Source: Candidatus Krumholzibacteriota bacterium
Lineage (GTDB): Bacteria; Krumholzibacteriota; Krumholzibacteriia; LZORAL124-64-63
Reading direction: 5' to 3'
Assembly: GCA_024277025.1 (NCBI GenBank)
Contig: JAJRWA010000067.1
Location: 504-64,503, forward strand
DNA: 64,000 bases
In this document: piece by piece, positions 4,708-60,823 of the stretch
How positions within the stretch are numbered: position 1 is the first letter of the stretch
Layout of the letters: each line of letters starts with the position of its first letter
The notes under the pieces: generated by a model
What the model was told of the DNA's origin: nothing
The model's database searches: none
The model's input: only the letters and a program-made list of their open reading frames with translations
Made by a program: the position numbers and the translations under genes

Positions 4708-4708
4708 T

Positions 4709-6925: not shown

Positions 6926-7024
6926 CTCCCATATAAGGCGAAGACCGTCCACCTCCACTGCCCAGCACCAGGCGGGCCGTGCGGAGCCGGGATTTCAGCG
7001 TGGGCGCAACAAGGGATTGTCAGC

Positions 7025-18606: not shown

Positions 18607-18751
18607 GATGAGTCTCCGGCCGGAAGCGGGGTTCCGAAAAGTTGGGGCGGTGCTCCATTTGGCGCAGCGGATGGGGACTGATTTGTATTCTGGTGGTATA
18701 TTTTACCACATAGGTATCACCCCGTCAATATTCGGGAGATTGAGCGCGGCC

Positions 18752-24879: not shown

Positions 24880-25188
24880 GGGGGCCTCCGCCGGGTTGGG
24901 AGTTGGGAGTCGGCAGGTGGCCAGCCGGCCACCCTTGCCGCCTTGCAGGCGGTTTTTCGTCTCTTGCTATTTAAAGCTTTTTCAAAGTGGTTGGCAAGAA
25001 AAAACGGCTTGGTTATGGTGGGGCGGTCCCGGTTTCGTGCCGGGATCGGCCGGGTGAAGGTCCATTCGCCTCCGGACGGGAATATTCCCGGGAACCATCG
25101 GGATGGATTCACGTATCACAGCGGCCGTTTGACACACGATTTGCAGGTTTCAGCCGCTGGTGCGGAGCGCCAGGTCCGAAAGGTCGCC

Positions 25189-26175: not shown

Positions 26176-26180
26176 GAACA

Positions 26181-28213: not shown

Positions 28214-29199
28214 TGGAACTGGCGCGTCCGCTGCTTCTGTTGTTGTTGCCGCTGGTTGGCGTTGCCCTGTGGGCCCGGTTGCGTGGTGGTGGTGATCAGA
28301 CCGCTCTGCGCCACTCTCGTTTGCCGTTGCTGGTGCCGGCGCGTGATCCGATGCGGGTACGGTTGGCCCGCGGGCTGCCCTGGGTCACGGCGCTTGCGTT
28401 GGCCCTGCTGGTCGTGGCGGCGGCCGGTCCGCGCCAGAGCCGCAGCAGCGAGGATATCGAAGGCGAGGGCATCGATATCGTGCTGAGCCTGGACATCAGC
28501 GGCAGCATGCGCTCCCTGGATTTCCAGCCCCAGGATCGTCTGGGTGCCGCCAAACAGGTGATTCGCGACTTCATTGCGGGACGGCCCCACGATCGGATCG
28601 GGCTGGTCGTCTTTGCCGCCCGCGCCTTCACCCAGTGCCCCCTGACACTGGACCATCCGGTGCTGACCGGATTCCTGGACGAGATCCAGGTCGGCCTGAT
28701 CGACGATGGCACGGCGATCGGTCTGGGCCTGGCCACGGCGGTGGCGCGCCTGAAGCACTCGACCTCTCCGAGCCGGACGGTGATCCTGCTGACCGACGGG
28801 GTGAACAATGTGCCGACCCTCGAGCCCGAGACCGCGGCCAAACTGGCCAAGTCCCTGGATGTCCGGGTGTACACGGTTGCCATCGGGCGCGAGGGCATGG
28901 TGCCGTATCCGGTGGATGACCCCATCTTCGGCCGTCAGACCCGGCAGGTCGAGACACGTATCGACCTGGCTCTCCTGCGGCGGATCGCCGGGGCGACCGG
29001 CGGCGAGATGTTCCAGGCCACGGACCCGGAAGCCCTGGCCCGGATTTTCAGGACCATTGACGAGTTGGAAACAGCCCGCTACGAAACGAAGATCAGCACC
29101 TGGTACCGGGAGCGTATGGTGTGGTTCGCCCTGCCGGCGCTCCTGCTGTTGCTGCTGGAGGGGATCCTGGGTGCCACCTGGCTGCGGCGTGTGCCGTAG
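28213..29199 (+). CDS. batA: BatA (vWA-domain membrane protein)
   Basis: Two N-terminal TM helices followed by a vWA domain with MIDAS DISGSM…TDG. Start overlaps the upstream stop (TGATG). Confidence 0.85.
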   Translation: MELARPLLLLLLPLVGVALWARLRGGGDQTALRHSRLPLLVPARDPMRVRLARGLPWVTALALALLVVAAAGPRQSRSSEDIEGEGIDIVLSLDISGSMRSLDFQPQDRLGAAKQVIRDFIAGRPHDRIGLVVFAARAFTQCPLTLDHPVLTGFLDEIQVGLIDDGTAIGLGLATAVARLKHSTSPSRTVILLTDGVNNVPTLEPETAAKLAKSLDVRVYTVAIGREGMVPYPVDDPIFGRQTRQVETRIDLALLRRIAGATGGEMFQATDPEALARIFRTIDELETARYETKISTWYRERMVWFALPALLLLLLEGILGATWLRRVP

Positions 29200-29225
29200 C
29201 CGGCAGTGACCGAGAAAGGACGAGC

Positions 29226-46910: not shown

Positions 46911-48272
46911 GTGAAAACAGTGCTGATCGTCGACGATGAGATCGCCATCCGTGAAACCCTGGAGATGATCCTGACCTACGAGGACTATCAGGTCGTCAAG
47001 GCGGGTTCCGGTGCCGAGGCCCTGGCTGCCGTCGCCAAACAAACGCCGGATGTGATTCTGTTGGATGTGAAAATGCCGGGCATGGACGGCTTCGAGGTCA
47101 TGGAACGCCTGAAAGCCGCCGGCAACGACGCGCCGGTGATTGTGATCTCGGGACACGGCAATATCCAGACGGCGGTCGAGGCAGTCAAGCAGGGCGCCTA
47201 CGATTTTCTGGAAAAACCCCTTGATCGCGATCGGCTGCTGGTCACGCTGGGCAACTGTCTTGACTATCGGAAGGCCCGGCAGGACGTGGCGGTGCTGGTC
47301 GAGCAAACGCAAGCCAGGACGCCGCTGGTGGGCGAAAGCCCGGGGATGCGGGAAGTCAGGACATTTATCGAGAAGGTGGGGGGCAGCGAGGCCACGGTCC
47401 TGATTACCGGCGAAAATGGAACCGGCAAGGAGCTTGTCGTCAGCGCCATTCACCGGATGAGTGCGCGGCGGGATCATCCCCTGGTCGAGGTCAATTGTGC
47501 GGCAATCCCGCGGGACCTGGTTGAATCTGAACTGTTTGGTCACGAGAAAGGCAGTTTCACCGGCGCTGACAGACAGCGGATCGGCAAGTTTGAGCAGGCC
47601 GACGGCGGCACCTTGTTCCTGGACGAGATTGGGGACATGAATGAGGAAGCCCAGGCCAAGGTCCTCAAAGCTGTCGAGGAGAGCCGCTTCCAAAGGGTCG
47701 GTGGAACTGATACGCGAACAGTCGATGTGCGGATTGTCGCGGCCACCAATCGGGACCTTGCTTCGCCGGCTTCGGGATTTCGCCAGGATTTGTTCTTCCG
47801 GCTCAATGTGCTGTCCATCCACTTGCCTCCCCTGCGGGAGCGGCCTGGCGACGTGGAATTGCTGCTGAACTGGTTCATGGCCGATCTGGCGGCCCGGATG
47901 AAGACGGCGCCCCGGCGCTTCGCGCCAGCCACTCTGGAAATCCTGAATGCCTATTCATGGCCCGGCAATGTGCGGGAACTGCGCAACCTGGTGGAGCGCA
48001 TGCTTATACTGGCTTCAGGTGAAGTTGTGCAACCCTCGGATCTGCCCCTCATGCCGGGTACCGAACAGGCTTCTGAAAAATCGACATCTCTGTTTGCCTG
48101 CAACGACTTCCAGGAGTTCAAGGCCAACAGCGAAGGAGAGTTTTTGCAACACAAGCTCAAGGAAAACCTGTACAATGTTTCCAAGACGGCCGAGGTGCTG
48201 GGCATGCAGCGCAGCAATCTGTACAAGAAGATCACAAAGTACGGCTTGCGAACCCAGCCGACTGTCGATTGA
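46911..48272 (+). CDS. Sigma54-dependent response regulator (NtrC family: REC + AAA+ + Fis-HTH)
   Basis: REC domain with D54-like (LLDVKMPGMDG). AAA+ Walker A GENGTGKE. GAFTGA motif in ESELFGHEKGSFTGA. C-terminal HTH. GTG start. No histidine kinase gene adjacent. Confidence 0.85.
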   Translation: MKTVLIVDDEIAIRETLEMILTYEDYQVVKAGSGAEALAAVAKQTPDVILLDVKMPGMDGFEVMERLKAAGNDAPVIVISGHGNIQTAVEAVKQGAYDFLEKPLDRDRLLVTLGNCLDYRKARQDVAVLVEQTQARTPLVGESPGMREVRTFIEKVGGSEATVLITGENGTGKELVVSAIHRMSARRDHPLVEVNCAAIPRDLVESELFGHEKGSFTGADRQRIGKFEQADGGTLFLDEIGDMNEEAQAKVLKAVEESRFQRVGGTDTRTVDVRIVAATNRDLASPASGFRQDLFFRLNVLSIHLPPLRERPGDVELLLNWFMADLAARMKTAPRRFAPATLEILNAYSWPGNVRELRNLVERMLILASGEVVQPSDLPLMPGTEQASEKSTSLFACNDFQEFKANSEGEFLQHKLKENLYNVSKTAEVLGMQRSNLYKKITKYGLRTQPTVD

Positions 48273-48331
48273 AGGGAGTCCTGGATTTACGGAGCGTAAA
48301 CCTGGGTTGACACATTTCCCCGGGATACGTG

Positions 48332-48360
48332 TTGACTTGCCGAGCGTTCATCCGTAAATA
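48332..48360 (+). promoter_or_regulatory. Near-consensus sigma70 promoter TTGACT-N17-TAAATA upstream of the small secreted protein gene
   Basis: -35 TTGACT at 48332-48337, -10 TAAATA at 48355-48360, exact 17-nt spacer. Confidence 0.5.
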
Positions 48361-48459
48361 ATAAGGACAATCCGCAGTCTTTCCCGGGCAGGTCGGTTGG
48401 GGAAGAAGGCAGCAAAGTTCGTTCAGACGGGGTGTGTATCTTTGAAGGAGAAGAAGAAC

Positions 48460-48801
48460 ATGAAAAGAATCCATATGGTTCTCGTTCTTCTGGTGACAGT
48501 GTTTGTGGTGGTTGCCGCCGGTGGTGCGCCGTTGGCTTACGCCGGTGAGGCGGGCTCCATCCAGGTTCCCGATGCCTTGACCAGGGGAAGCGACACAGTG
48601 TTGAACACTGCGAGCACTCCGCCTGGTGGCGACGACGCCGAGGGCGATCCGGATTCCATGGGTGACGGCCTTTCCAAGGATCTCAACGATTCTGGCGCGT
48701 CTGCCAGTTCCGGCGGCCTGATTATCGACGGCGTTGATATTACGGCGCTTGAGGAGTCCTTGCTGTACATACTGTCGCAGATTCAGATTCTGGTGCTGTA
48801 G
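48460..48801 (+). CDS. Small secreted acidic protein (113 aa, hypothetical)
   Basis: GAAGGAG RBS 9 nt upstream. Signal peptide ending AYA/GEAG. Asp/Gly/Ser-rich mature region. Hydrophobic C-terminus LLYILSQIQILVL. Confidence 0.5.
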   Translation: MKRIHMVLVLLVTVFVVVAAGGAPLAYAGEAGSIQVPDALTRGSDTVLNTASTPPGGDDAEGDPDSMGDGLSKDLNDSGASASSGGLIIDGVDITALEESLLYILSQIQILVL

Positions 48802-48884
48802 GGGGTGCCCGGTTGCGGGCAACCCGGCATCGACAACAATTACGGACAGGTCACCGGTCCACTTCCTCGCCGAGGGAACGGTTG

Positions 48885-50126
48885 ATGAGAGACAACTATA
48901 AGAATCAACGTAGATACGGCGCTGACCGTCAGGCGTTCGGGCGGGCCCTCGAGCCCGCCGCGTGGAGCCGCTTGGAGCAGGTCGGTGATCTCCATTTCCA
49001 TTCGTCTGCGTACTCGTCCGCCCTCGACTATTATGGCCAGTTACTCAACGAGGCGTCGCTCAATGTGGTTCCGTGTGAGCAGGCTTTCGGCGTTCTGCGC
49101 AAGGCCGTCGACTCGCATCTCCTGCTGGGGCATTTGAATCAGGCCACTGAGTTGCTGGATCTGGCATCCAGTCTGGTCAATCGCACGACTGGTTTGTCTG
49201 ACCCCGGCGAAAACGCTGTGCTCAACGCCACGTTCGATATCAGGCGAGCGACTGTTTTCCGCGAGCGCGGCCGGCTGCACGATGCGCTGAACCTGGCCAA
49301 ACGGGCTTTCTCGGTCCTGGCCCTGACGGATCAGCACGCTGATGTGGCACGGTTGCAGGTGGTGATGGGTGTTTGCCATGCCCGGCTCGGACGCGGGGTG
49401 AAGGCCGGCGAGTTCTTTGCCGATGGCTTGTCCACCTACCGCCGCATCGGCCACGACGAGGGCGTGGCCAATCTGCTGAACAACCTGGCTCTGCTGGAAA
49501 AGAACCAGTGCCACTGGGGCAAGGCGCTGGCGCAGATGGAGAAGGCCGTCGAGTTGGCCCACCGGATCGGGGCCAGTCATCTGTTGCCCGGCTTCTATCT
49601 CAATCAGGGAATCGTCCTGCAGAAGATCGACCGTCTCGGCGAGTCCCGTTCGTTGCTGGAAAAGGGATTGCGCCTGGCTGTCAGTCTTGGCGACCAGATC
49701 CATGAAACGCGCCTCAATCTGGCCATGGGGCGGCTTGAAACCCTCTCGGGGCGATTGGCGCGGGCCGAGACTTTGCTGCTCAGCGGCAAGACGCTAGCGG
49801 ATCAGAACCACTTTCTGCGGGAGGCCACCATCGCCGATGAGTATCTCGGTGATGTTCAACTCCTGCGGGGCGACGCGGACAAAGCACGTTTCAATTACCA
49901 GTTGGGATTGGAGAAATCCCGCTCGATCGCCGTGGGCAATGATCTCGAGGGCGAGTTGCAGCGGCGCGTGGGCGAGGCCCACCTGCTTTCCGGCCAACTG
50001 GATGAAGCGATTGCGGTCAGCCAGGCTGCCATTGCTGTCTGTGAGCAGTGCGGTGAAGAGTATGAGATCGGTTTCTGCCATCTGACCCTGGGCAAAGCCT
50101 ACGCGCGCCGGAATGACTGGCAGTAG
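48885..50126 (+). CDS. Cytoplasmic TPR-repeat protein; probably the N-terminal part of the downstream sigma54 activator (same frame, separated by one TAG)
   Basis: Multiple TPR-like units. The ORF ends with TAG at 50124-50126 in the middle of a TPR-like unit (…LGKAYARRNDWQ*SDHHFRQAIARFQDQ…). The downstream ORF is in the same frame. Confidence 0.55.
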   Translation: MRDNYKNQRRYGADRQAFGRALEPAAWSRLEQVGDLHFHSSAYSSALDYYGQLLNEASLNVVPCEQAFGVLRKAVDSHLLLGHLNQATELLDLASSLVNRTTGLSDPGENAVLNATFDIRRATVFRERGRLHDALNLAKRAFSVLALTDQHADVARLQVVMGVCHARLGRGVKAGEFFADGLSTYRRIGHDEGVANLLNNLALLEKNQCHWGKALAQMEKAVELAHRIGASHLLPGFYLNQGIVLQKIDRLGESRSLLEKGLRLAVSLGDQIHETRLNLAMGRLETLSGRLARAETLLLSGKTLADQNHFLREATIADEYLGDVQLLRGDADKARFNYQLGLEKSRSIAVGNDLEGELQRRVGEAHLLSGQLDEAIAVSQAAIAVCEQCGEEYEIGFCHLTLGKAYARRNDWQ

Positions 50127-50267
50127 AGCGATCATCACTTCCGCCAGGCAATCGCCAGATTCCAGGACCAGCGTCTGCAGCACCTGTGGTGCCGCGCGAT
50201 CCTCGAATTTGCCGACCACCGGCTGGAAAACGCAGCCGAGCCGGAACTGCTGCTCTTCAGGCGTTAT

Positions 50268-51992
50268 TTGATGGACGCCCAGGAAGATGGGGCCGCATCG
50301 GTCAGCGATCTGGTCCTGTGTCAGGTGCTGGAAAAGCTGGCCCAGGTCCAGATCCAGTTGGGGCAATTCGACGACGCGCTGCTGACCGTCTTTGAACTCG
50401 AACGCCATGCAACGGGTTGCGAGGACCCGACGCTGGACAACTCGGTTGTGGCCTTGCGCAATCAGATCGAAGCCGGCTTGCTCGGCGGCGTCAACGACAC
50501 CGAGTCCCATCTGCAGGCGATTTCGGGTCTGCCCGGCCTTTTTGCCCAGGGCGGGCCGGCTGTGCCGCGCAATCTGGGGTCCGTGTTGGCCGCAGGTATG
50601 GAGCGAGTGCAGGCGGACAGCGGCTTCATCGCCATGATCAGTCACGATGGCCGGGGTCTCGCGACACATATCGCGGCCCGCAAGGGATTGACCGAGAATC
50701 TGAGCGAGCAGCTCTCCGGTTGGTTTGACGGCGAGCTTTCCAGCGGACGTCGCTCGGGCACGTGTTTCTTTTCCCGGTTGGATCCGGCTGATGATATTGT
50801 CATGGCCGTGCCGGCACTCCTGAGCGTTGCCGACAGTTGTGTCTTCATGCCGATCGCGCTGCACGACCAGCGCTTTGGCCTGCTCTGCCTGGCCAAGTCC
50901 GGTGTCGGCGCCGGTGGTTCGGCCTTTGATCGGGCCAGCCTTGATTTCCTGGCGACCTATATGGGATTCCTGGCGCTCTTCCTCTATGAAAAGGGGCGCG
51001 GCGCCACTGACGAAACTGTGCATACTCCCTTCGAGCGGATCGAGAGCTTCGAGAACATCATCACCCAGAACAGCAAGATGCTTGATGTTCTGGGCCTGGC
51101 GCGCAAGGTGGCGCCCAGTGATTTGACGGTCTTGCTCAGCGGTGAGACCGGAACGGGCAAGGGTTTGCTGGCCTACTCGATCCACGCCTTGAGCAAGCGG
51201 GCTGGCCGGAAGTTCCTCTCCATCAATTGTGCGGCGATCCCCGAAGCGCTGCTGGAGTCCGAGCTGTTCGGCCACAAGCGCGGCAGCTTCACCGGGGCGC
51301 ACAGCGACAAGAAGGGGTTGCTGGCCGAGGCTGAAGGCGGCACCGTATTTCTTGATGAAGTAGGCAAGATGCCCTTCAGCATGCAGGGCAAGTTGCTGCA
51401 TTTCATGGACACCAAGATTGTGCGCCCGGTCGGCGGCAACGTCGAAGTGCCGGTGGATGTGCGGATTGTTTGTGCTTCCAAGGCCGATTTGCATCAGATG
51501 GCCATGGAGGGGAAGTTCCTCGAGGATCTCTATTACCGGCTGCTGGATTTCCCGCTGGTGATGCCGCCGTTGCGCGAGCGTCCCGATGATGTCGAGTTGC
51601 TGACCCGGCATTTCGTCGAACGCTTCAGTATGGAGTTGGCTGGCGAGGTGCCGGCTCTGGATCGGGGTTTCCTGGATTGTCTGGTGCAGCACAGCTGGCC
51701 GGGTAATGTGCGGGAATTGGAGAAGACGCTGCGGCGGGCCATTGTGCTGGCCCAGGGTGATGGTGTTTTGCGTCCCGAGCATTTGCCGGAGCAGATTGCC
51801 GGCACGCCGGATGCGGTGCCCAGTGGTGAGGTGGCCCCGTTGAAGGAGACTTTGGCCGGTATCGAGTGCCGTGAGATCAGGCGCGCTCTCGAGATTTCCG
51901 GTGGCAACAAGTCCCAGGCTTCCCGGGTGTTGAAGATCAGCTATCCGAATCTGTTGAAAAAGATCCGTCACTACGGGATCGTGAAGGACTGA
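50268..51992 (+). CDS. Sigma54-dependent transcriptional activator with a GAF sensor domain (NifA-like: GAF + AAA+ + HTH)
   Basis: GAF region (…MISHDGRGL…HDQRFGLLCL…). AAA+ Walker A GETGTGKG. ESELFGHKRGSFTGA (GAFTGA motif). C-terminal Fis-type HTH. The true N-terminus is probably upstream (see the in-frame TAG). Confidence 0.8.
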   Translation: MMDAQEDGAASVSDLVLCQVLEKLAQVQIQLGQFDDALLTVFELERHATGCEDPTLDNSVVALRNQIEAGLLGGVNDTESHLQAISGLPGLFAQGGPAVPRNLGSVLAAGMERVQADSGFIAMISHDGRGLATHIAARKGLTENLSEQLSGWFDGELSSGRRSGTCFFSRLDPADDIVMAVPALLSVADSCVFMPIALHDQRFGLLCLAKSGVGAGGSAFDRASLDFLATYMGFLALFLYEKGRGATDETVHTPFERIESFENIITQNSKMLDVLGLARKVAPSDLTVLLSGETGTGKGLLAYSIHALSKRAGRKFLSINCAAIPEALLESELFGHKRGSFTGAHSDKKGLLAEAEGGTVFLDEVGKMPFSMQGKLLHFMDTKIVRPVGGNVEVPVDVRIVCASKADLHQMAMEGKFLEDLYYRLLDFPLVMPPLRERPDDVELLTRHFVERFSMELAGEVPALDRGFLDCLVQHSWPGNVRELEKTLRRAIVLAQGDGVLRPEHLPEQIAGTPDAVPSGEVAPLKETLAGIECREIRRALEISGGNKSQASRVLKISYPNLLKKIRHYGIVKD

Positions 51993-52058
51993 TCCGGCCC
52001 GGGGATGGATGTATTAAGTCCCGTGTGGGGACTTGGTTTGTGCATAGCAAAAGTTTAT

Positions 52059-52097
52059 AACGCAACTTGTTCCAGTACAGCAGGTTGCGTTTTTTTA
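52059..52097 (+). terminator. Rho-independent terminator after the sigma54 activator gene
   Basis: AACGCAAC-loop-GTTGCGTT followed by T7. Confidence 0.6.
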
Positions 52098-52227
52098 GGA
52101 ATACCTGTTAATAAAGTTAATAGTAAATTGAGACAGTGGTGATTGCTGGCGTCTTTCAGTTGAACGGGTTGCCTTGTAAGTCGGTATTATGAAGCCTGTT
52201 ATAGAAATTCCAGCCGTTTTGGTCAAG

Positions 52228-52244
52228 TTGGTACGGGCCCTGCT
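52228..52244 (+). promoter_or_regulatory. Candidate sigma54 promoter (-24 TGGTAC / -12 CTGC) inside the low-GC intergenic island
   Basis: TTGGTACGggccCTGCTT has a 10-nt spacing between GG and GC as in TGGCAC-N5-TTGC, and the same -12 CTGC variant as the strong promoter at 52895. Confidence 0.35.
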
Positions 52245-52255
52245 TATGCAGGAGC

Positions 52256-52590
52256 GAAGGGGCGAGTTACAGGGAACCTCTTCGAACTTGATTGATCTTT
52301 GACATTCGTGTTTTCGGGAGAGGCGAGGTTGTTTCCCTCATTTTGCTTACCGGCATGGGGGGAAGTTCTCAACAAGAAGGTTGTCAAAAGGATTGTGAAG
52401 AGGTGGGGTCTGATCAGTCGTTTTTTGGCGGCGAGAGAGAATCTGCAACCTTTTCTCCCGAAACACGAATTTCAAGGAACACTCAGGACATACAGTTCTG
52501 GATCTCTCACCGGAGATCATAAAAAGAGCCCTTACTGATCTTGAAAAGGCGAGATTCAAGGTCAGGCTGCCGCAAGGCGGGGCTCTTTTT
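52256..52590 (+). ncRNA. Candidate structured small RNA (about 300 nt), unknown family, defined by promoter, long closing helix and terminator
   Basis: Low-GC (about 47%) non-coding stretch. 5' arm ATTCGTGTTTTCGGGAGAG-gcg-AGGTTG (52304-52331) pairs with CAACCT-ttt-TCTCCCGAAACACGAAT (52446-52470). Internal hairpins. The 3' end at 52521-52590 is AAAAAGAGCCC…GGGGCTCTTTTT with an inner CCGCaagGCGG hairpin. The ORFs here have atypical low-GC codon usage. Confidence 0.3.
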
Positions 52591-52894
52591 CCATGCCTGG
52601 AACTCAGGCCGCCCGGGCCGTGAAACCAGGGAATCACCAGGCTTTGTTCCGTCTCTTTTTGGATAATCTGTCCTGCAATTCACACAGCCACCAGCGAAAA
52701 AAGGACAGCCAGGATCCGGTCGATGGTGACGCGCGACCGCTTGCTGCCGGCAGGTGTTGGCGTGTGCAGTGACGCCTGGAGTTTTCCAACATGCGTAATT
52801 GTAGCGAGTTAGCTGGTTGCTGGCCCGTGGCCGTCGGCTATGGTCTCCCGTAGTTCTGATCTGACTGAACCATGACTGCCGGCTCGACCGAGGG

Positions 52895-52909
52895 TGGCAC
52901 AAAGTCTGC
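52895..52909 (+). promoter_or_regulatory. Strong sigma54 promoter TGGCAC-N5-CTGC about 45 nt upstream of the lipoprotein gene
   Basis: agggTGGCACaaagtCTGCg: the -24 element is perfect, the -12 element is CTGC, and spacing is canonical. Predicted TSS is about 52921. Confidence 0.5.
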
Positions 52910-52951
52910 GTTAGTCACGTAGCGAACGTGGTATTGACAGGAGGCGATTTC

Positions 52952-54019
52952 ATGAGCAAAGCCAATGAACTCCGAAGGGCGAACGATACGCGACTCAGGA
53001 CGGCCTCCGTGTGGGCCGTTCCCGCGGGCGGTTTCGGAGCGAAATTGACGAGCAGGCTTCTGGTGGCCCTGGTCTTGTCCTTGCTGGTGGCGTTGGCCGG
53101 TTGCGAGTCCGACGAGGACTGTATCAACTGCGTCGACTTGCCGCCTCCTGTCGTACCCACGGGTGTGCACAGTATCAGTGGCAACAATGAAGTGATTGTC
53201 CAGTGGATCGACATCGCCTACGCCCCTTACGACGACAGCTACAACGAAAACGTAACCACCTATTTCATCTACAGCCGATTCTACGAGAACGGCGATGAGT
53301 TTGATCCGGACCGCGAATTCTTCTTCATCGGTGAAGTGGCCTGGAACGAGAACTATGACGGCAGCACCGGGCTGCACTGGTTCTATGACACCGAAGCGGT
53401 CAACGGCGAGCAGTACGAATACGCCGTGGCCGCCGTCAATGCCGCTGGACGGCAGAGTGCCCTGAGTTTCGAATTTGTCGCCGATGCGCCGTTGCCGATG
53501 AGTCCGCTCGACGGGCAGGGCTGGTTCCTGCCCGTCGAGGTCTTCGATGGCAACGGTCCGAGTGTCAATCTCTCGGCCTTCAATTTCCGCACGGCAGGAT
53601 TGAATCCGACGGTGCTGACCGCGGGCCGCGTCAGCCCGGCCGCCCCTCACCATATCAGGATCAGTATCGAGGGCGGTATTGCCTACGCGCTGGCCGAGGT
53701 CGCGTCCACGAGGATTCAGGACTTCGGCTCGTTCAGTGACGGCAACGGCAATGTGATCTTCGAGGGCGTTTCGTGGGCGCCGGCTGAGGGGTATTCGCGC
53801 ACCGGCAGGCTGGAACTGGTTGAAGGCCATGTCTATGTCGCGGAAATCATCGATCCGGTGACCAGCGAGTTGCATTACGCCAAGTTCGGCATCAACGCGA
53901 TCAACGCCGGTTCGGTCGAGCTCATCTGGGCCTACCAGCTGATTCCCGGGTTGCCGGAACTCAAAATGCCGAACCCGGGCGGCGATCCCGGGGTCAAGCC
54001 GCAAGTGATAAAGCTCTAG
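52952..54019 (+). CDS. Lipoprotein with a fibronectin-III/Ig-like beta-sandwich region (hypothetical)
   Basis: GACAGGAGG RBS. Signal peptide plus lipobox LAGC. FN3-like segment (…EYAVAAVNAAGRQS…). Confidence 0.6.
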   Translation: MSKANELRRANDTRLRTASVWAVPAGGFGAKLTSRLLVALVLSLLVALAGCESDEDCINCVDLPPPVVPTGVHSISGNNEVIVQWIDIAYAPYDDSYNENVTTYFIYSRFYENGDEFDPDREFFFIGEVAWNENYDGSTGLHWFYDTEAVNGEQYEYAVAAVNAAGRQSALSFEFVADAPLPMSPLDGQGWFLPVEVFDGNGPSVNLSAFNFRTAGLNPTVLTAGRVSPAAPHHIRISIEGGIAYALAEVASTRIQDFGSFSDGNGNVIFEGVSWAPAEGYSRTGRLELVEGHVYVAEIIDPVTSELHYAKFGINAINAGSVELIWAYQLIPGLPELKMPNPGGDPGVKPQVIKL

Positions 54020-54064
54020 GACCGTGTCCTGGAAGAGAACGAGACAGGAAAGGAGAGTGAAGCC

Positions 54065-56029
54065 ATGACCCGCACATCGAATTACAACCCGACACTGAAC
54101 TCCCTGAGGAATCGGGGAGGGATGGGCTTCGCGCTGGCTGCCGTTTGGGCTCTCCTGTTCACCATTGCGCCGGGACCTGCCCGGGGCCAGGATTACGAAG
54201 TGGGCGGCCGCAGTGACTATCAGGCGGAAAAGACAGTGGCTGACTACACGAGCCAGGCCCAGCAGGCCGCTGGTAACGACTTCGACTACCAGGCCAACCC
54301 CTTGCGGGTCGAGGTCTGGGTCGACAAGCCCGCCGGCGAGGTCTATCGCAAGGGCGAGGAGATCCGGGTGGGCGTGCAGACCAACGAAGACGCCTACGCT
54401 GTCGTGTACCGAATTGATTCCGAGGGCCTGGTGACGATTCTCTGGCCCCGGAGCCGCTTCGACGACGGCTTCCTCTTTGGTGGCCATGAGTATTCCCTGC
54501 CGGTGACGGGCGGGCGCAGCCTGCGGGTGTCGACGCAGGAAGGGGAGGGTATTGTTGAAGCGATCGTCTCGCGCTATCCCTTCGACCTGCGGGCCCTGGA
54601 ACTGGATTTTCATCACGAGAGCACGAACGAGCGCTACGATTTTGCGGTGGCCGGTGACCCTTTCCTGGCCATGAACGAGGTCAACTATGCGGTGACCGGG
54701 CTGGAGGATTCGGCGGAATTCGTGGTGACCAATTATGTCAGCTACTATGTCCACCAGCAGGTGGATCATCCGCGCTACCTGTGCAGTCAGTGCCATATCG
54801 ACGATGGTCTGGCGACTGATCCCTACGGGGAGACCTGCACGCTGGACATCCAGTACGACTACTCCTGGTACAACAGCTGGTACGACCGCTACGGTTACTA
54901 TCCCGTCTACGGCAATCCGGTCTATGTGTATATCGATCCCTGGACCTACAACCCCTGGGTCAACTACTGGTACACGCCCTACTACAGCAGCGCGCCGTGG
55001 TACGGCTGGGGCTGGGGCTGGGGCGTGTCCTACATCTGGGGCTATTCGCCCTACTACTGGGGCAACAGCGTGACGGCCTACAACAGTGGCTACCAGCGCT
55101 ATCGTCCGCTGGACCGGTCGGGACTGGACGGCGGCCGCGGCGGTTCGGTGACCAAGACCAGGGAGTATTCGCGTGGCTCGGAAATGGTGCGCAAGAGTGG
55201 GCCTTCCGAGAGTGAACGCGGTTCGATGAAAGCACGTACCCGAACGGACAGAAGCTCCCGGGACCGGACGACGGTTGCCGGCCGCAGCACCGGTGGCCGG
55301 GATCCGAATTACCGGGGTGCGCCGGCCGAATCCCGTTCGCGGGGCTCCGCAGGCCAGGTGGCCACGACCGGGCGCAGCCAGAGCGGATTGCGAATTCGTG
55401 AGAGCGGGCGTGGCTCCGGCACGACGAGAACGCGGACGTCGGCCACGACGACGTCACGCCGGCATACGGCGGCCGGTGAAGGCCGGCGCGCTGGACTCGT
55501 GCCCGTGAGCCGGGGATCCTCTTTTGACAATGAAACCTGGCGGGGCACCAGCCGGGTCGGTGGTCGCAGCACCACGACAGTCGGCCGCAGCGGCCGGACA
55601 GGATCGGGCTCCGGCCGCAGCAACAGCCCGGCCGCCTCGGCCAACAACCGCACCCGAAGTTCGAGTGGCGGGAAGGCCGTGCAGCCGCGGAAACGCAGCA
55701 CCCGGGTGTGGAACGCGACCGGCAGCCGCTCCGGCTCGAGTCAGAACTCGCGGCGGTCCCGGTCCAGTGCGGTGAACAACCGCAGTACCGGCGGCCGCAG
55801 CGGCAACAGTGCCACGAGCGTCAAGCGCACGAGATCTTCGGGCAGCAAGTCGAGCGGTGGCAAGTCGTCCGGTGGCCGGTCCAGTGGTGTCAAACGCAGT
55901 GGCGGGTCCCGGGGCGGCAGCAGCGCCGGACGCACAGGCGGTGGCTCCCGGGGCGGCAGTTCCGGCGGTGGCCGGTCGTCAGGCGGTTCCCGGAGTTCCG
56001 GCGGCCGCAGCAGTTCGTCACGTCGCTAG
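54065..56029 (+). CDS. Exported DUF4384-domain protein with an aromatic (W/Y)-rich segment and an Arg/Ser/Gly/Thr-rich disordered C-terminal tail of about 300 aa
   Basis: AAGGAGAG RBS. Signal peptide. DUF4384-like block (…VWVDKPAGEVYRKGEEIRVGVQTNEDAYAVVYRIDSEGLVTILWP…). CSQCH motif. A 90-aa stretch at about 40% W+Y. Tail made of RS, SG and RT repeats ending …GGRSSGGSRSSGGRSSSSRR. 45-nt gap to the upstream lipoprotein gene, so they are probably an operon. Confidence 0.7.
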   Translation: MTRTSNYNPTLNSLRNRGGMGFALAAVWALLFTIAPGPARGQDYEVGGRSDYQAEKTVADYTSQAQQAAGNDFDYQANPLRVEVWVDKPAGEVYRKGEEIRVGVQTNEDAYAVVYRIDSEGLVTILWPRSRFDDGFLFGGHEYSLPVTGGRSLRVSTQEGEGIVEAIVSRYPFDLRALELDFHHESTNERYDFAVAGDPFLAMNEVNYAVTGLEDSAEFVVTNYVSYYVHQQVDHPRYLCSQCHIDDGLATDPYGETCTLDIQYDYSWYNSWYDRYGYYPVYGNPVYVYIDPWTYNPWVNYWYTPYYSSAPWYGWGWGWGVSYIWGYSPYYWGNSVTAYNSGYQRYRPLDRSGLDGGRGGSVTKTREYSRGSEMVRKSGPSESERGSMKARTRTDRSSRDRTTVAGRSTGGRDPNYRGAPAESRSRGSAGQVATTGRSQSGLRIRESGRGSGTTRTRTSATTTSRRHTAAGEGRRAGLVPVSRGSSFDNETWRGTSRVGGRSTTTVGRSGRTGSGSGRSNSPAASANNRTRSSSGGKAVQPRKRSTRVWNATGSRSGSSQNSRRSRSSAVNNRSTGGRSGNSATSVKRTRSSGSKSSGGKSSGGRSSGVKRSGGSRGGSSAGRTGGGSRGGSSGGGRSSGGSRSSGGRSSSSRR

Positions 56030-56252
56030 CGGCGTCAGGCGAGGAATTCAGATTGTGTTGGTGGTTTCCCCCCATCACCCGTCGGCCGGAGAGAGACCGG
56101 ATTCTCGAAGAGGTTGGCACCAAAACGGGAAGGGTAGCGAACCGACTGGACGGGGACACCGACACATCAATGGAGAGCCCGGCGGGGGAATGTCGATCAG
56201 GGGTGACAGGTACCGCGTCGGGCTCTCCGACTCTCCACAGATCAGCGCGTGA

Positions 56253-56281
56253 TTGACCGGGCTGCGGGCCCTGCCTATAAT
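56253..56281 (+). promoter_or_regulatory. Near-consensus sigma70 promoter TTGACC-N17-TATAAT upstream of the large CTD-bearing cargo gene
   Basis: -35 TTGACC at 56253-56258, -10 TATAAT at 56276-56281. Confidence 0.5.
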
Positions 56282-56349
56282 GCGCAGCGAATATGATCCC
56301 CCGAGTTTCCGGACCAGGCCGGTTTGATCCCTGAAAGGCCCATTGATTC

Positions 56350-59300
56350 ATGCGCATTATTCCCTTCGCCCTTTGGTTTAGCCTTGTTGCTGTCCACGGC
56401 GCGGTTCCTGCCACCGCCGGGACACCGGTGGTCTACGGGGCGGATGCTGCCGGTACCGCAGCGGTTGCCGGGCTGCAGGAACTCCTACGGGCGCAATCGG
56501 CCCCGCTGCGGGCTGATGCCGCGCGCGGTCGCCAGGCCAGTCGTCTGGCTGGCGAGAGGGCCCCCGACACGCTGAATGCCCTGGTCATGATGTGCGACTT
56601 CAGCGACAGTTTGATGCTCGGCCGTTACGGCCAGGTGCCGGGTGATTTCCCGCCGCCGATGCAGACCGATCGTCACTACGCCGCCCACGATTCGGTCTAC
56701 TTCGACCATATGTTGAGCAAGGTGTCCGACTACTTCACCACGGTCAGTGGTTCCCGGCTCACGATCAACTACACCATTCATCCCCGCACGATCAATCTGC
56801 CGCAACCCATGTGGTTCTATGGCAATCATCCGCAGGAAGGCGAGCAGACCATGCTGCTGGCCGCTCAGGTGGTCGACAGTCTGGGCACCGAGATCGACCT
56901 GTCCTTGTACGACACTTTTGTGCTGATGCACGCCGGTGCGGGTGAAGAAACCGACATCCTGGGCAACAGCCCCGAACAGATCTTCAGTACCTATCTCGAT
57001 CCGGACGATTTTGCGGCCGCAGTCGAGGACAGCATTCTGGAGCAGCCGTACCTGCCGGCGCCCGGTTTCCCGGCGGGAACCGGAATCGACCGTGTTCTGG
57101 TCCTGCCGGAGACGGAGCAGCAGGATCCGGTCGGGGGCTTCGGGGGCGGCTTTGGCAGCCTGGGTGTCTACTGCTTCGAGTTTGGGCTGCATCTGGGCAT
57201 GCTTTCGCTGAGCGATTTTACGCCTTCGGGTCGGCCGGACAGCCAGGGCATCGGCCAGTATGGCCTGATGGGGTACGGGCTGTTCGTCGGGCTGGGCTTC
57301 ATTCCGCCGCACCCCTGCGCCTACAACAAACTGCTGATGGGTTGGCTGGATCCCTACGAGGCCGACGCCCGGAGCGGCGGCACGTATAGGCTGACGCCGT
57401 CCGAGGCACCGAACCAGCCGTTGGCCTGCGCCCGGGTGAATCTCACCGGCCAGGAGTTCTGGCTGCTGGAATACCGCCTGCAGGATCCCAACGGGGATCG
57501 GCGCTATACATTCGGCGACGACAAGAACGGCAATGGGCTGCCTGATTTCTACGACATGGATTCCACTGTGGGTGGCGGCATTCCCACCGGCAAGTTCGAC
57601 GCGGCCACCGATTCCCTGGAGCGGGTCATCGAGGCCGAGTGGGACTTTGCCATGAGCGAGAACAGCGCGCGCGTCCTGGGCGAGTTGGGCTGGGGGAGCG
57701 GCGTCTATGTGTGGCACATCGACGAGGGCGTGATTGCGAGCGTGATTGATGCGCCGCGCAATCTCTTCAACGCCGACGCCGGGCGCAAGTCGGTGGACCT
57801 GGAAGAGGCCGACGGGATTCAGGACCTGGACTCCAACGAACCGTCGGCGTATATGCTGGGCGGCGATGATGACAGCTTTCGCGGCGAGTTCACGGCGGAT
57901 TTCACGCCGTCGACGCGCCCGAATACCGGAACCTCGAGCGGGGCCTACAGCGGAGTCGCCTTCAGGAATTTCAGCAATGTGGTGACCGACTCCTTCGTGG
58001 CGCCGCTGTACACCGATCCGGAGACCGGGATCACCTACTGGGCCTTCGAGTACGCTGATACCATGTCCTTTGATCTTCAGATTGAAACAGCTGCGGCCGG
58101 TGCGCCGGTGCTGCACGCGCGCCGGGATCTGGCGCCCGGAACGGACTTGCGCGGGTCCCATGTCCTGGTGGGCGATCTGGACCAACTGGGGGGCACTGAC
58201 GAGATCATTCTGGCCGGACATGCAGGCGAGGTTTTTGTGCTGGACGGGAATCTGGATGAATTCCTGGACCACGACGGTGATGCGGCCACCCTGGAGCCAT
58301 TCGTGGTCGGCACGCGCGGCGGGGCGCCGGTGGTGTGGAACCTGCCGCCGGCCCTGGGCGACATCGATGGCGATGGCGAGCCGGAAATCCTGCTGACCGG
58401 GGCCGGAGGGTTGTTCGCCTTCAAGCGGGACGGAACCGCAGTGCGCAACCCGGAACCGGGATCTTTCGGGCTCTATGCGGATGTCCCCGGCTGCGAATTG
58501 CCGCCGGTTCTGCTGGCCGATTCGCGATTCAGCCCAGAGGCGGATCCGGGTGCGAGGGTGCAGGCACTGGTCATGGAGCAGGGGCCGGGCGGCGCCCGAC
58601 TGTTGTTCCTGCGCGGGGCTGATGCCACGGAGATAGCCGCGGTAGACCTGGGTGACGGGGTCGTCAGGTCGGTGCCGCTGGCCCTGGATGACTATGTTGT
58701 GGTGGCCGTGGCCGATACCAGTGGGGCGAACAACCGCCTGGTGATCCTGGAGCGTACGGCGGATATTCTGCCGGCGATTCCATCCCGCCTGGACCTGGCT
58801 TTGTCCGGGATGCCCGGGCGGTTGCCGCTGCTGGCTGGTATCGCCCCCGGCAGTGATCCGGCCCAACCACTCTTTTTTGTGACCGTAATCGATACGGCCG
58901 GGCGTGGTGAGACCGTCTTCTTCGATAACAACCTGGTGGCGGCACGGGAGCCCAGCCTGTGGCCGGTCGACCTGGTGGTTGCAGCCCCTCTCGGTCTGGG
59001 CGGCGCCTTTGTGGGCCAGGATGTTCTGGGGCGGGTCGGCAACGGTGGCCATTGGCTGACCGGGTGGCCGCGACGGCCGCTGCAGGGCGACCTGGCCGGT
59101 GATTCACGGTGGCAGGGGCAGCCTCTGGTGGCCCAACTTGTTGGTTCGGTCCAGAATCTGGACCAGTTTATTTTTCCGACGCGGGATGGGCGCCTGTTCG
59201 CCACCGGCGGGCAGGGCGATGATGAGCCGGGCTGGCCGCTGGCCGGGCCGGCGGTCTCGGCCGGTACGCCGGCCTTTGGGCAACTGGTTGGCTCACCCGA

Positions 59301-59799
59301 TGCTGATCTGGTGACGACCGGGACCTTTGACCGGATCACCGGTACTGACGGGGCAGCGGGACTTGCCACCGAACCGGTGGCCACGGTGGCGGTCTGGCGT
59401 GATCTCGCGGTTGCGCAGCCTATCTGGCCGATGCATGGTGGGTCGGTCTGGCGCAACGGGTCTTTTGACCTGGCGGTCTGGCAGCCCGGCGGGGCTGTTG
59501 CACCGGGCACAGGCCTGGTGTCCGGCAGCCACTTCTGCTTCCCGAGTCCCCTGGAAGAGGGCCCGCTGCAGGTGAGCGGCAAGGTCCGCAGTCCGGCACG
59601 GGTCAAAGTCGTGGTGTATAATCTTGAAGGGGAAGAGGTGGGGCAAACCGGTTGGCAGGCGGTCGGCCCGGTTGAACCTTTCATTGTTGGTATTGACTTG
59701 CCGGGGGCGGTAACGGGGCTTTACCTGTGCCGTCTGGTGGTCGATACCCCGGGAGTCGGAACGGAGAACAGTGTGACTCAGTTCGCGATTGTCCACTGA
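56350..59799 (+). CDS. Large secreted protein (1149 aa): M6 (InhA)-like N-terminal region without a canonical HEXXH, FG-GAP/VCBS-type repeats, and a C-terminal T9SS/FlgD-Ig-type sorting domain
   Basis: Signal peptide. M6-domain-like N-terminal 450 aa, but the expected HEYGHDLG position reads CFEFGLHLGM. FG-GAP-like repeats (GDLDQLGGTDEIILAG…, GDIDGDGEPEILLTG…). C-terminal …TGLYLCRLVVDTPGVGTENSVTQFAIVH beta-sandwich tail. Confidence 0.7.
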   Translation: MRIIPFALWFSLVAVHGAVPATAGTPVVYGADAAGTAAVAGLQELLRAQSAPLRADAARGRQASRLAGERAPDTLNALVMMCDFSDSLMLGRYGQVPGDFPPPMQTDRHYAAHDSVYFDHMLSKVSDYFTTVSGSRLTINYTIHPRTINLPQPMWFYGNHPQEGEQTMLLAAQVVDSLGTEIDLSLYDTFVLMHAGAGEETDILGNSPEQIFSTYLDPDDFAAAVEDSILEQPYLPAPGFPAGTGIDRVLVLPETEQQDPVGGFGGGFGSLGVYCFEFGLHLGMLSLSDFTPSGRPDSQGIGQYGLMGYGLFVGLGFIPPHPCAYNKLLMGWLDPYEADARSGGTYRLTPSEAPNQPLACARVNLTGQEFWLLEYRLQDPNGDRRYTFGDDKNGNGLPDFYDMDSTVGGGIPTGKFDAATDSLERVIEAEWDFAMSENSARVLGELGWGSGVYVWHIDEGVIASVIDAPRNLFNADAGRKSVDLEEADGIQDLDSNEPSAYMLGGDDDSFRGEFTADFTPSTRPNTGTSSGAYSGVAFRNFSNVVTDSFVAPLYTDPETGITYWAFEYADTMSFDLQIETAAAGAPVLHARRDLAPGTDLRGSHVLVGDLDQLGGTDEIILAGHAGEVFVLDGNLDEFLDHDGDAATLEPFVVGTRGGAPVVWNLPPALGDIDGDGEPEILLTGAGGLFAFKRDGTAVRNPEPGSFGLYADVPGCELPPVLLADSRFSPEADPGARVQALVMEQGPGGARLLFLRGADATEIAAVDLGDGVVRSVPLALDDYVVVAVADTSGANNRLVILERTADILPAIPSRLDLALSGMPGRLPLLAGIAPGSDPAQPLFFVTVIDTAGRGETVFFDNNLVAAREPSLWPVDLVVAAPLGLGGAFVGQDVLGRVGNGGHWLTGWPRRPLQGDLAGDSRWQGQPLVAQLVGSVQNLDQFIFPTRDGRLFATGGQGDDEPGWPLAGPAVSAGTPAFGQLVGSPDADLVTTGTFDRITGTDGAAGLATEPVATVAVWRDLAVAQPIWPMHGGSVWRNGSFDLAVWQPGGAVAPGTGLVSGSHFCFPSPLEEGPLQVSGKVRSPARVKVVVYNLEGEEVGQTGWQAVGPVEPFIVGIDLPGAVTGLYLCRLVVDTPGVGTENSVTQFAIVH

Positions 59800-59884
59800 T
59801 GGGGATCGCGTGACAGGCTATAATAGGCGGCAAGATGACCGGGGCCTCCGGGGCCGTGGTCGGCACAACACGGAAAGGGATTCC

Positions 59885-60823
59885 ATGGTTCGCAAGAACA
59901 AGACGACGGCGGGAGCGCTGGTGGCAGCGATGCTCCTGACGGTGGCCCTGGCACCATTGGCTCAGGCAGCGGAACCGGGCGAGTCCGGCTTGCTCTCTTT
60001 GCGCATCGGGGTCGGCGGGCGCGAGGCGGGAATGGGCGAGGCCGGAGTGGCCAGCAGTCACGGGGCGGCGGCGATCTACTGGAATCCGGCCAACAATGTT
60101 TTTGGCGACCTGGAGACCGAACTGGTCCTGCAGCACGACCGCTATCTCGGCCTGTTCAATCAAGAGGCTGCGGCCGTGGCCCATCGGGTTGGGCGAGGAG
60201 TCGTCGGGTTTATCTTTACCGGGCTCTATTCCGATGCGATTGACCGGCGCAGCCAGGACAATACGGGTATTCCCGAGGGATCCTTCAAGCCGTACGATGT
60301 GGCTTTTGGCGTGAGCTATGCCCATCCGCTGGGTGAGAGCTTCGGGCTGGGGATGAATGCGAAGATGGTCTATCAGCGCATTGATATCTATTCCGACACC
60401 GGCTTCGCCTTCGATTTCTTCGTCAGCCACAAGGCCGTTGTCGAAGGGCTGATGTTTGGCGCGAGTGTGACCAATCTGGGCGGGCAGATGAATCTGAAGA
60501 ACGATGCGTTCAATCTGCCGACGGCGTTTCGGATCGGTGCCTCGTGGAGCCCGGAGCACGACGATGGCCTGGGCCGGCTGACGCTTACCGGCGATGTGGT
60601 GATGCCCAACGATGCCAACAACAAGGCCCACGCGGGCGCCGAATACCGCCTGCTGCCCGAATTCTCGCTGCGCGTGGGCACGCGTATCAACTATGAGAAT
60701 CAGGGGCTGACTGCCGGTGCGGGTTTCCGGACCGGAGTCTTGGGCGTTGACTACGCCTACGGTGAATCGACTGTCGACGGCATTGACGACGGGCACAAGT
60801 TCGCGCTGAATCTGGTGTGGTAG
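59885..60823 (+). CDS. FadL/PorV-superfamily outer-membrane beta-barrel (T9SS PorV/UPF0164-like)
   Basis: Signal peptide (…LAPLAQA). N-terminal G-x-x-G-M-G-x-A-x-x-A…WNPA motif (REAGMGEAGVASSHGAAAIYWNPANN). C-terminal aromatic residue (…ALNLVW). Confidence 0.6.
   Translation: MVRKNKTTAGALVAAMLLTVALAPLAQAAEPGESGLLSLRIGVGGREAGMGEAGVASSHGAAAIYWNPANNVFGDLETELVLQHDRYLGLFNQEAAAVAHRVGRGVVGFIFTGLYSDAIDRRSQDNTGIPEGSFKPYDVAFGVSYAHPLGESFGLGMNAKMVYQRIDIYSDTGFAFDFFVSHKAVVEGLMFGASVTNLGGQMNLKNDAFNLPTAFRIGASWSPEHDDGLGRLTLTGDVVMPNDANNKAHAGAEYRLLPEFSLRVGTRINYENQGLTAGAGFRTGVLGVDYAYGESTVDGIDDGHKFALNLVW

Follow-up and report, generated by a model that had tools for sequence, protein, structure and literature searches.

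Sigma-54-dependent small RNAs (sRNAs) include Qrr of Vibrio, encoded next to the luxO gene, and a further example is provided by the GlrR-GlmY pair of Enterobacteria; the crcZ promoter of Pseudomonas is RpoN-dependent as well, and CrcZ is about 400 nt long. In Vibrio, LuxO and sigma-54 together drive Qrr (10.1101/2021.07.01.450815). The crcZ gene lies downstream of cbrB in all Pseudomonas genomes analysed and is induced by CbrB, an NtrC-family activator (PMC5113210), while in Myxococcus xanthus the sRNA gene pxr lies 3' of nla19, the gene of a sigma-54-dependent response regulator, with a predicted sigma-54 promoter in the 262-nt spacer (PMC5568312). Sigma-54 has also been presented as a controller of the bacterial exterior, with promoters located before exported and envelope genes (Francke et al., 2011, PMC3162934). 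Here we describe a locus of a Candidatus Krumholzibacteriota bacterium (contig JAJRWA010000067.1), in which the genes of two predicted sigma-54 activators are followed by two -24/-12 promoter elements (P1 and P2), a structured RNA and genes of exported proteins. The DNA analysed was a 64-kb stretch (the window), with the focus on positions 46911-60823, whose genes are on the plus strand.

The reading that we favor, with a probability of about 0.75, is that of a phylum-specific sigma-54 module with two inputs and two outputs, namely the RNA and an mRNA for envelope proteins, from which the adjoining genes of an M6-like protein and a PorV/PorQ-family barrel would be separate. An earlier note on this DNA had proposed an rpoN-dependent programme controlling surface components, covering the whole exported set. 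Its core, a sigma-54-centred module with P2 placed before the lipoprotein and DUF4384 genes, is retained; however, P1 would drive no protein gene, and the giant protein and barrel genes have a sigma-70 promoter of their own.

For comparison, 39 loci from species-representative genomes (obtained in a profile search with the lipoprotein) and 29 metagenome contigs were collected, all of them from Krumholzibacteriota. The named close homologues of the window proteins likewise all originate from metagenome-assembled genomes called Krumholzibacteria, Krumholzibacteriota or "bacterium." In every Krumholzibacteriia locus spanning them, the activator genes, both -24/-12 promoters, the upstream palindromes and the lipoprotein-DUF4384 pair show constant order and spacing.

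Conserved promoters and upstream palindromes

The intergenic region between the second activator gene and the lipoprotein gene (960 bp in the window) contains both matches to the pattern TGGYAY-N5-YTGC found in 64 kb (52229 and 52895), each on the plus strand. With 1.23 matches expected in 64 kb, the count of two is not significant by itself, and the weight of the promoter evidence lies in position, strand and conservation. Both elements have a GG/GC spacing of exactly 10 nt in a TGGCAC-N5-TTGC-like context. P1 takes the form TGGTAYG-N4-[C/G]TGC and is located 200-245 bp past the activator stop codon, with the exact TGG-N9-TGC core in 27 loci and one mismatch in most others, and P2, of the form TGGCACG-N4-[C/G]TGC, precedes the lipoprotein gene, with the exact core, in 33/34 loci. 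In 60 orthologous sites, TGC is preceded by C or G and never by T, so the "CTGC variant" of the -12 element, which the earlier note had rightly recognized in both promoters but considered unusual, is the norm for P1 and P2 across the clade. The transcription starts predicted there, at about 52256 and 52921, would fit these conserved elements.

A position weight matrix derived from the orthologous sites detected only P1 and P2 in the window. When both strands of 684 kb of related loci were scanned with it, 55 of 56 matches coincided with the P1 and P2 positions, on the coding strand; as the matrix had been trained on the P1 and P2 sites themselves, the informative part of this result is the lack of other matches.

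Each promoter is accompanied by a conserved upstream palindrome, a candidate upstream activating sequence (UAS). The pattern of UAS1, YTRTAAA-N5-TTTAYAR, is unique in the window. It occurs at -109 to -124 from the TGG of P1 in most relatives, with a second copy at about -174 to -176 in 13 loci, and in the long loci 46 of 49 matches fall into two position bins adjoining P1. The UAS2 block (GTCyC-N6-GGrkA-N4-TGTCC) was found in 29/34 loci, at -164 to -245 from P2, although its pattern is less specific elsewhere than that of UAS1. It lies within the 52600-52890 region to which an enhancer had previously been assigned. Interpretation of UAS2 as an RNA hairpin was rejected, because changes on one arm are not compensated on the other, and UAS2 therefore reads as a DNA site. 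Another palindrome of the window, GTCCCGTGTGGGGAC (52018-52032), was discarded as a P1 enhancer, since, unlike the AT-rich UAS1, it is not conserved in relatives. The simplest interpretation of the different palindromes at P1 and P2 is that two activators serve two promoters.

A structured RNA in the intergenic region

The G+C content of the window is about 62% overall, and it falls to 45-51% at 51800-52600, compared with approximately 60-65% in the flanks. The "low-GC non-coding island" of the earlier note is thus real with respect to the dip, but it holds a structured RNA gene and is not a spacer. Judged by conservation and covariation, the segment 52254-52590 is a new structured RNA family, which explains the island. 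In all loci, the conserved block begins with GAAGGGG, 12-14 nt past the GC of the -12 element, and ends with GGGGCUCUUUUU.

In a MAFFT alignment of 29 orthologues, RNAalifold identified 66 consensus pairs, of which 32 show compensatory double changes. In this alignment 95.2% of cells are paired, vs. 88.0% in column shuffles (0/500 reached the observed value), double-change cells number 157, vs. 50 in the shuffles, and sliding the partners by 1-3 columns reduces pairing to 38-57%. An alignment of 48 sequences yielded 89 pairs, 55 of them with at least two Watson-Crick types; this alignment was fitted to a covariance model and so leans to the structure, whereas the MAFFT alignment does not. G-U pairs, one of them present in 27/29 sequences, fix the strand of the RNA. 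The window copy folds to -136.5 kcal/mol, with a minimum free energy z-score of -5.4.

The covariance model (R1) gave a single match per locus, always between the activator and lipoprotein genes, with scores of 141-311 bits, in the 32 site-spanning genome loci outside the most divergent clade and in the 29 metagenome contigs. The latter came from an independent pattern scan, in which 35 stretches matched (29 true RNA copies and 6 chance matches), and the synteny flanking the RNA is identical on these contigs wherever the flanking genes are present. Among the most divergent loci, L035 scores 31 bits and L036 and L037 were missed by the model, which means that the family is broader than R1 captures. 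These three loci (about 9500-9830, 9498-9768 and 4574-4843, respectively) retain P1 and UAS1 and have a shorter RNA of about 270 nt, beginning with AUGUAGUGG and not with GAAGGGG.

Across relatives the RNA is 270-360 nt long and comprises at least eight helices with a multi-branched core. The consensus fold consists of: (i) a 5' hairpin (GAAGGGG/CCUCUUC) with the invariant loop ACAGGGA; (ii) a long-range helix (GUGUUUUCGGGAGA/UCUCCCGAAACAC) closing the multi-branched core; (iii) within the core, one hairpin whose cap is a small GCUUACCGGC stem-loop, plus a stacked arm with the invariant end loop GAGGUGGGGUCU; (iv) a variable linker with a small hairpin; and (v) a 3' domain, whose terminator stem surrounds two hairpins, one with the invariant loop AAGGCGAGA and the other GNRA-capped. 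The branched terminator occupies 52521-52590, and its stem is part of the conserved fold. A kissing contact between the GCUUACCGGC loop and the GGUGGGG loop was dropped, since the first loop is missing from one clade while the second is invariant. Repeated motifs of the CsrB or CrcZ kind are not present in the RNA, whose invariant purine-rich loops include a single ACAGGGA hairpin loop.

The element shows no open reading frame (ORF) conserved across relatives, several of which have no ATG-initiated ORF above 0-6 codons, and its length differences are not multiples of three. The small ORFs 52292-52522 and 52299-52538 of the window were rejected as genes, since no ORF is conserved in relatives. 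A comparison with Rfam 15 gave no relevant match at the gathering score over the whole window, and none at E ≤ 10 with relaxed filters over 51990-52960.

Genes of the locus and their neighborhood

The features of the locus are listed in Table 1.

Table 1. Features of the Krumholzibacteriota locus (window positions)
Feature	Position	Strand	Characteristics
NtrC-type response-regulator enhancer-binding protein	46911-48272	+	Receiver, AAA+ sigma-54 interaction domain and Fis-type HTH; Pfam Response_reg 3e-33, Sigma54_activat (PF00158) 2e-65, AAA_lid, HTH_8
Sigma-70-type promoter of small secreted protein gene	48332-48360	+	TTGACT-N17-TAAATA; read from sequence
5' leader of small-protein mRNA	48361-48459	+	Variable hairpin, then invariant GACGGGGUG (48426-48434) about 25 nt ahead of ribosome-binding site; alignments, 23 loci
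Small secreted acidic protein	48460-48801	+	113 aa; signal peptide, D/E/G-rich middle with GDPDxxGDGxG, hydrophobic C-terminus
TPR-GAF-AAA+-HTH enhancer-binding protein	48885-51992	+	Pfam TPR_12, TPR_MalT; Sigma54_activat 1e-62, HTH_8; weak GAF (GAF_2, E = 0.006)
In-frame amber TAG	50124-50126	+	Takes the place of CAG (Gln); splits the TPR-GAF activator
Intrinsic terminator of TPR-GAF activator gene	52059-52097	+	13-bp stem, then T-run
UAS1	52105-52123	.	Palindrome YTRTAAA-N5-TTTAYAR (CTGTTAATAAAGTTAATAG); 124 bp 5' of P1 TGG
P1, predicted sigma-54 -24/-12 promoter	52229-52243	+	TGGTACGGGCCCTGC; TGG-N9-TGC core; conserved
Structured non-coding RNA	52254-52590	+	337 nt; from about the predicted P1 transcription start to the U-run of the branched terminator
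UAS2	52651-52673	.	GTCyC-N6-GGrkA-N4-TGTCC (GTCTCTTTTTGGATAATCTGTCC); 244 bp 5' of P2 TGG
P2, predicted sigma-54 -24/-12 promoter	52895-52909	+	TGGCACAAAGTCTGC; 42 nt 5' of lipoprotein start codon
Lipoprotein	52952-54019	+	355 aa; invariant lipobox LAGC, FN3 domain, second beta-rich domain
Secreted DUF4384 protein	54065-56029	+	Pfam DUF4384 2e-12; Tyr/Trp-rich segment; Arg/Ser/Gly tail of about 250 aa ending RR
Sigma-70 promoter	56253-56281	+	TTGACC-N17-TATAAT; 11/12 consensus positions; 5' of giant protein gene
Exported M6-like metalloprotease homologue	56350-59799	+	1149 aa; zinc motif absent; FG-GAP-like repeats; T9SS-CTD-like C-terminus at motif level
PorV/PorQ-family outer-membrane beta-barrel	59885-60823	+	NF033709 PorV_fam 158 bits vs. 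cut-off 90; Pfam PorV 1e-4

Both enhancer-binding proteins named by the earlier note bear it out, with strong Sigma54_activat matches, HTH_8 and the GSFTGA loop. In the response-regulator activator, the phospho-acceptor residues are also visible in the translation, its reading frame is intact in the window, and an orthologue with 63-85% identity occupies the equivalent position in all loci. The description of this regulator as an orphan agrees with the lack of a histidine kinase gene among the ORFs scanned across the 64-kb window.

The domains attributed to the second activator are present (a TPR region at 48813/48885-50123 and a GAF, Sigma54_activat and HTH_8 region at 50268-51992), but here they do not form one ORF, being separated by the in-frame TAG. 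The window reads NDWQ*SDHHFRQAIARF, while relatives, e.g., SDWQQADHHFRQAIAKF, mostly have Gln at the stop position, and the protein is encoded by a single uninterrupted ORF in about 30 of them. The 413-aa TPR fragment is recorded at NCBI as a separate protein, and the stop is therefore present in the deposited assembly; either a genuine nonsense mutation or an erroneous base call could account for it. Shortly 3' of the TAG there is a conserved Met (ATG 50271), from which a TPR-less activator could be made. A search with the TPR part of the activator returned only seven fragmentary matches and was uninformative on other phyla. A terminator hairpin equivalent to that following the activator gene (AACCCGTTG...CAACGGGTTA) is found in many relatives.

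Between the two activator genes, an ORF of similar build to that of the small secreted acidic protein (about 100-115 aa) fills the corresponding gap in 33/33 relatives spanning it, and on this comparative evidence the ORF is a real gene, in agreement with the earlier note. The promoter ascribed to it also has a counterpart in most relatives, where a TTGACn-N17-(G)TAAATA/TAGATA element stands right behind the stop codon of the response-regulator gene. The small protein matches no Pfam or NCBIfam family. It is always encoded immediately 5' of the TPR-domain activator, and a secreted peptide beside a TPR receptor recalls the RRNPP-type quorum-sensing pairs, an analogy that is pure speculation. 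The leader motif GACGGGGUG nearly equals GAAGGGG(C/U)G at the start of the sigma-54-associated RNA, and the two motifs could be a common protein-binding site.

The lipoprotein and the DUF4384 protein correspond to their earlier description, as the lipobox, the domain and the composition of the aromatic segment and Arg/Ser (RS) tail are conserved in orthologues. In about 33 orthologues of the DUF4384 protein there are 22-29 aromatic residues per 60 aa, and the tail contains 30-57 R, 17-96 S and 16-63 G per 250 aa. The window protein (54900-56029) has about 26 aromatics per 60, and the tail ends in RR in most orthologues. Among secreted bacterial proteins, a composition of this SR-protein-like kind is unusual. 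PDB sequence searches gave no match for the lipoprotein, the N-terminal part of the DUF4384 protein or the M6-like protein, and look-ups by exact sequence found no recorded contig for the DUF4384 protein or the lipoprotein. As far as these searches indicate, the lipoprotein and the aromatic/RS DUF4384 protein are without characterized relatives.

The best family of the 1149-aa protein is NF052323, "T9SS-dependent M6-like inactivated metalloprotease" (5e-52; 177 bits vs. a cut-off of 600), where T9SS stands for the type IX secretion system, and the protein also contains a TIGR03296 M6 domain (4e-17). Its HExxH motif is replaced (FEFGLH in the window, FE[FV]GL[HR] or close variants in every orthologue), which is consistent with an inactivated M6 homologue. 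The claim that this giant cargo protein bears a T9SS C-terminal domain (CTD) did not hold, since no T9SS CTD profile of Pfam or NCBIfam matches its last 109-599 residues at E ≤ 10, the tail giving only a weak NF052323 alignment (E = 0.18). The stretch VVVYNLEGEEV...GLYLCRLVV...FAIVH resembles type A CTDs, at the motif level only. For the barrel, the PorV-like assignment of the earlier note is correct at the family level (Table 1), with scores below the equivalog cut-offs for PorV (76.6 vs. 250), PorQ (78.9 vs. 220) and PorV2 (48.5 vs. 325).

A TTGAC[CG]-N17/18-TA(T/C)A(A/C)T element is present in 33/33 loci, 118-240 bp 5' of the estimated start of the M6-like gene (the raw offsets were measured from a point 60 nt further 3'), and the matrix scan detected no -24/-12 element ahead of this gene. 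On these promoter data, the M6-like and PorV/PorQ genes would most simply form a unit of their own under sigma-70, probably outside the sigma-54 unit. The conserved promoter at 56253-56281 also shows that the phylum uses canonical -35/-10 promoters.

The synteny in related genomes, on which the earlier proposal had been made to depend, is clearly conserved. As established by tblastn with the window proteins, gene order is identical in every sufficiently long locus: MutY, Rrf2, RlmN (minus strand), response-regulator activator, [small ORF], TPR-GAF activator, [gap of about 950 bp], lipoprotein, DUF4384, M6-like protein, PorV/PorQ, LpxH (minus strand), a 166-aa protein and HtrA, with protein identities down to 37-50% in the most distant loci. 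Gene order in this Krumholzibacteriota clade is unusually stable. The neighborhood of about 20 kb (window 43874-63956; L001-L039), housekeeping genes included, is collinear across the class even at 40-60% protein identity. In L039 (and L032) several genes appear in tblastn as frameshifted pieces; these look like long-read assembly errors and were not counted as gene disruption.

Elsewhere the window contains a flagellin gene (6905-7864), a MoxR/VWA/BatD-type (Bat-like) cluster (24802-33754) and two HDOD-domain signaling proteins (14999-16732, minus strand, and 34218-36320), one with a fused SpoIIE-type phosphatase. A 607-aa protein (16783-18606, minus strand) has a C-terminal FlgD Ig-like domain, a type of sorting domain common in FCB candidate phyla. 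Upstream of its gene (about 18690-18720, minus strand) lies a sigma-70-like promoter, TTGACGGGGTG-...-TAAAAT, in which the GACGGGGTG string recurs.

Proposed module and its relation to described systems

In the module that we propose, the first input would be the phosphorylation-dependent NtrC-type response regulator, with its kinase presumably encoded elsewhere, and the second the TPR/GAF sensor domains of the other activator, whose gene is preceded by that of the small secreted acidic protein. Activator hexamers would bind UAS1 (AT-rich, about 125-135 bp 5' of the P1 start) and UAS2 (of the GTCCC/GGGGA type, about 190-270 bp 5' of the P2 start), and switch on the sigma-54 holoenzyme at P1 and P2, which have the [C/G]TGC -12 element in common. 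From P1, transcription would yield a discrete, stable, folded RNA of about 300-340 nt, with the 5' helix at the predicted start and the branched intrinsic terminator as its 3' end. This RNA is most likely a trans-acting regulator, probably working via protein binding, the latter being suggested by the invariant purine-rich loops (ACAGGGA, GAGGUGGGGUCU and AAGGCGAGA). From P2, an mRNA would be produced for the FN3 lipoprotein and the secreted DUF4384 protein as envelope components, while the M6-like protein and the PorV/PorQ barrel would be transcribed from their own sigma-70 promoter.

A bolder extension of this scheme, which we regard as doubtful but conceivable, is that the RNA belongs to a new class of complex-folded bacterial RNAs and is not a simple antisense sRNA, its tertiary architecture being what matters (as a ribonucleoprotein scaffold, protein sponge or catalytic RNA). 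The RNA would then be the central output of a phylum-specific circuit, in which the secreted acidic peptide, the TPR-GAF activator and the orphan response regulator together control both the RNA and an envelope protein unusual for its aromatic-rich and Arg/Ser-rich regions, and the motif GA[AC]GGGGUG, present both at the 5' terminus of the RNA and in the secreted-peptide/TPR-activator mRNA leader, would mark a common RNA-binding partner closing a feedback loop.

The position of the structured element, co-oriented with the lipoprotein operon and immediately 5' of it, would also suit a cis-acting leader (riboswitch or attenuator), with P1 transcripts stopping at 52521-52590 or running into 52952-56029 depending on a ligand or protein. 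Its terminator stem belongs to the conserved fold, and its size and invariant loops are typical for ligand- or protein-binding RNAs. We nevertheless consider such a leader unlikely, because the operon is preceded by some 300 nt of poorly conserved spacer and by a complete second sigma-54 promoter with its own upstream element, no conserved antiterminator pairing was seen, and the terminator helices rank with the best-covarying parts of the RNA, which argues for one constitutive structure. Another alternative, that the conserved intergenic block represents regulatory DNA or encodes a small protein instead of an RNA, is highly improbable: the window does contain stop-free stretches of 76-80 codons, and other parts of the intergenic region are conserved DNA sites, but these are set against the ORF and length data of the relatives given above, compensatory substitutions at 32-55 helix positions and strand-specific G-U pairs.

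The wider model of the earlier note, in which both -24/-12 promoters serve a single rpoN-dependent programme that takes in the entire exported set, M6-like cargo and PorV-like barrel included, also appears quite unlikely. The order lipoprotein, DUF4384, M6-like, PorV/PorQ is indeed invariant in all spanning loci and no obvious terminator follows the DUF4384 gene. However, a near-consensus sigma-70 promoter stands ahead of the M6-like gene in 33/33 loci, that gene lacks a -24/-12 element 5' of it, and the invariant order also takes in the unrelated housekeeping genes of LpxH, HtrA, RlmN and MutY.

Several observations weigh against the two-input, two-output module itself. Since the housekeeping genes of MutY, Rrf2, RlmN, LpxH and HtrA are equally syntenic, order by itself is weak evidence for functional linkage, and co-localisation alone does not connect the T9SS-type genes functionally with the regulators. 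There is no clear terminator between the DUF4384 gene and the sigma-70 promoter, so that transcription from P2 may continue into the M6-like and PorV genes. UAS1 and UAS2 could bind other factors, e.g., the Rrf2-family protein encoded nearby, and rpoN was not found among the scanned ORFs of the 64-kb window. The premature TAG in the TPR-GAF activator may reflect a wrong base call; otherwise the circuit may have lost part of its function in this genome. The alignments show that the RNA is without the repeated GGA or A-rich array of known protein-sponge RNAs, and its mode of action is a guess. Finally, Krumholzibacteriota are uncultured.

The two-input, two-output reading nonetheless turns the locus into a complete and testable regulatory diagram (sensors, enhancer sites, promoters and outputs), drawn from comparative sequence data only. 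It adds an unusually large and well-supported RNA family, in which as many as 55 pairs covary and the promoter type is defined, and large conserved RNAs with invariant loops have repeatedly proved to have sophisticated biochemical roles. It also links sigma-54 to two uncharacterized envelope proteins, one of them with a eukaryote-like Arg/Ser-rich tail. A literature search revealed almost nothing on regulation in Krumholzibacteriota and nothing comparable described. The statement of the earlier note that this is not a described system is accurate for the components, but the layout and the exterior theme were known (PMC5113210, PMC5568312, PMC3162934).

With cbrB-crcZ, the locus shares an RNA gene placed directly 3' of an activator gene and co-oriented with it, and an RNA that is long for an sRNA, with hundreds of nt (PMC5113210). 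There is no homology in sequence or structure (no Rfam match), CrcZ works via repeated A-rich Hfq/Crc motifs that the Krumholzibacteriota RNA does not have, and co-transcription with cbrB is possible for CrcZ, while in this locus a terminator stands between the activator gene and the RNA. The setting differs too, as the host belongs to an FCB-group candidate phylum, there are two activators, and a second sigma-54 promoter at the locus precedes envelope genes. In nla19-pxr, the spacer is comparable to the approximately 260 nt between the activator stop codon and the RNA in this locus, but Pxr, of about 108 nt and three stem-loops, shows no homology to an RNA of 270-360 nt with a multi-branched fold of at least eight helices. 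The LuxO-Qrr and GlrR-GlmY systems resemble the proposed module in that an NtrC-type response regulator and sigma-54 drive an RNA encoded beside the regulator; Qrr and GlmY, however, are short Hfq-dependent or decoy sRNAs with Rfam families, none of which matches the Krumholzibacteriota RNA. The latter exceeds both Pxr and Qrr in size and in structural complexity.

Among the protein families, NF052323 and PorV/PorQ/PorV2 are similar in the M6-like domain without HExxH and in the adjoining barrel of the PorV/PorQ family, but the scores are far below the equivalog cut-offs (177 vs. 600 and 48-79 vs. 220-325, respectively). Control of the exterior by sigma-54 is a general theme and not a specific system (PMC3162934). 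On the evidence of these comparisons, the novelty lies in the RNA family and the envelope proteins that accompany it, while the placing of a sigma-54-dependent RNA gene after that of an activator is known from Proteobacteria and Myxobacteria and would now extend to the FCB superphylum.

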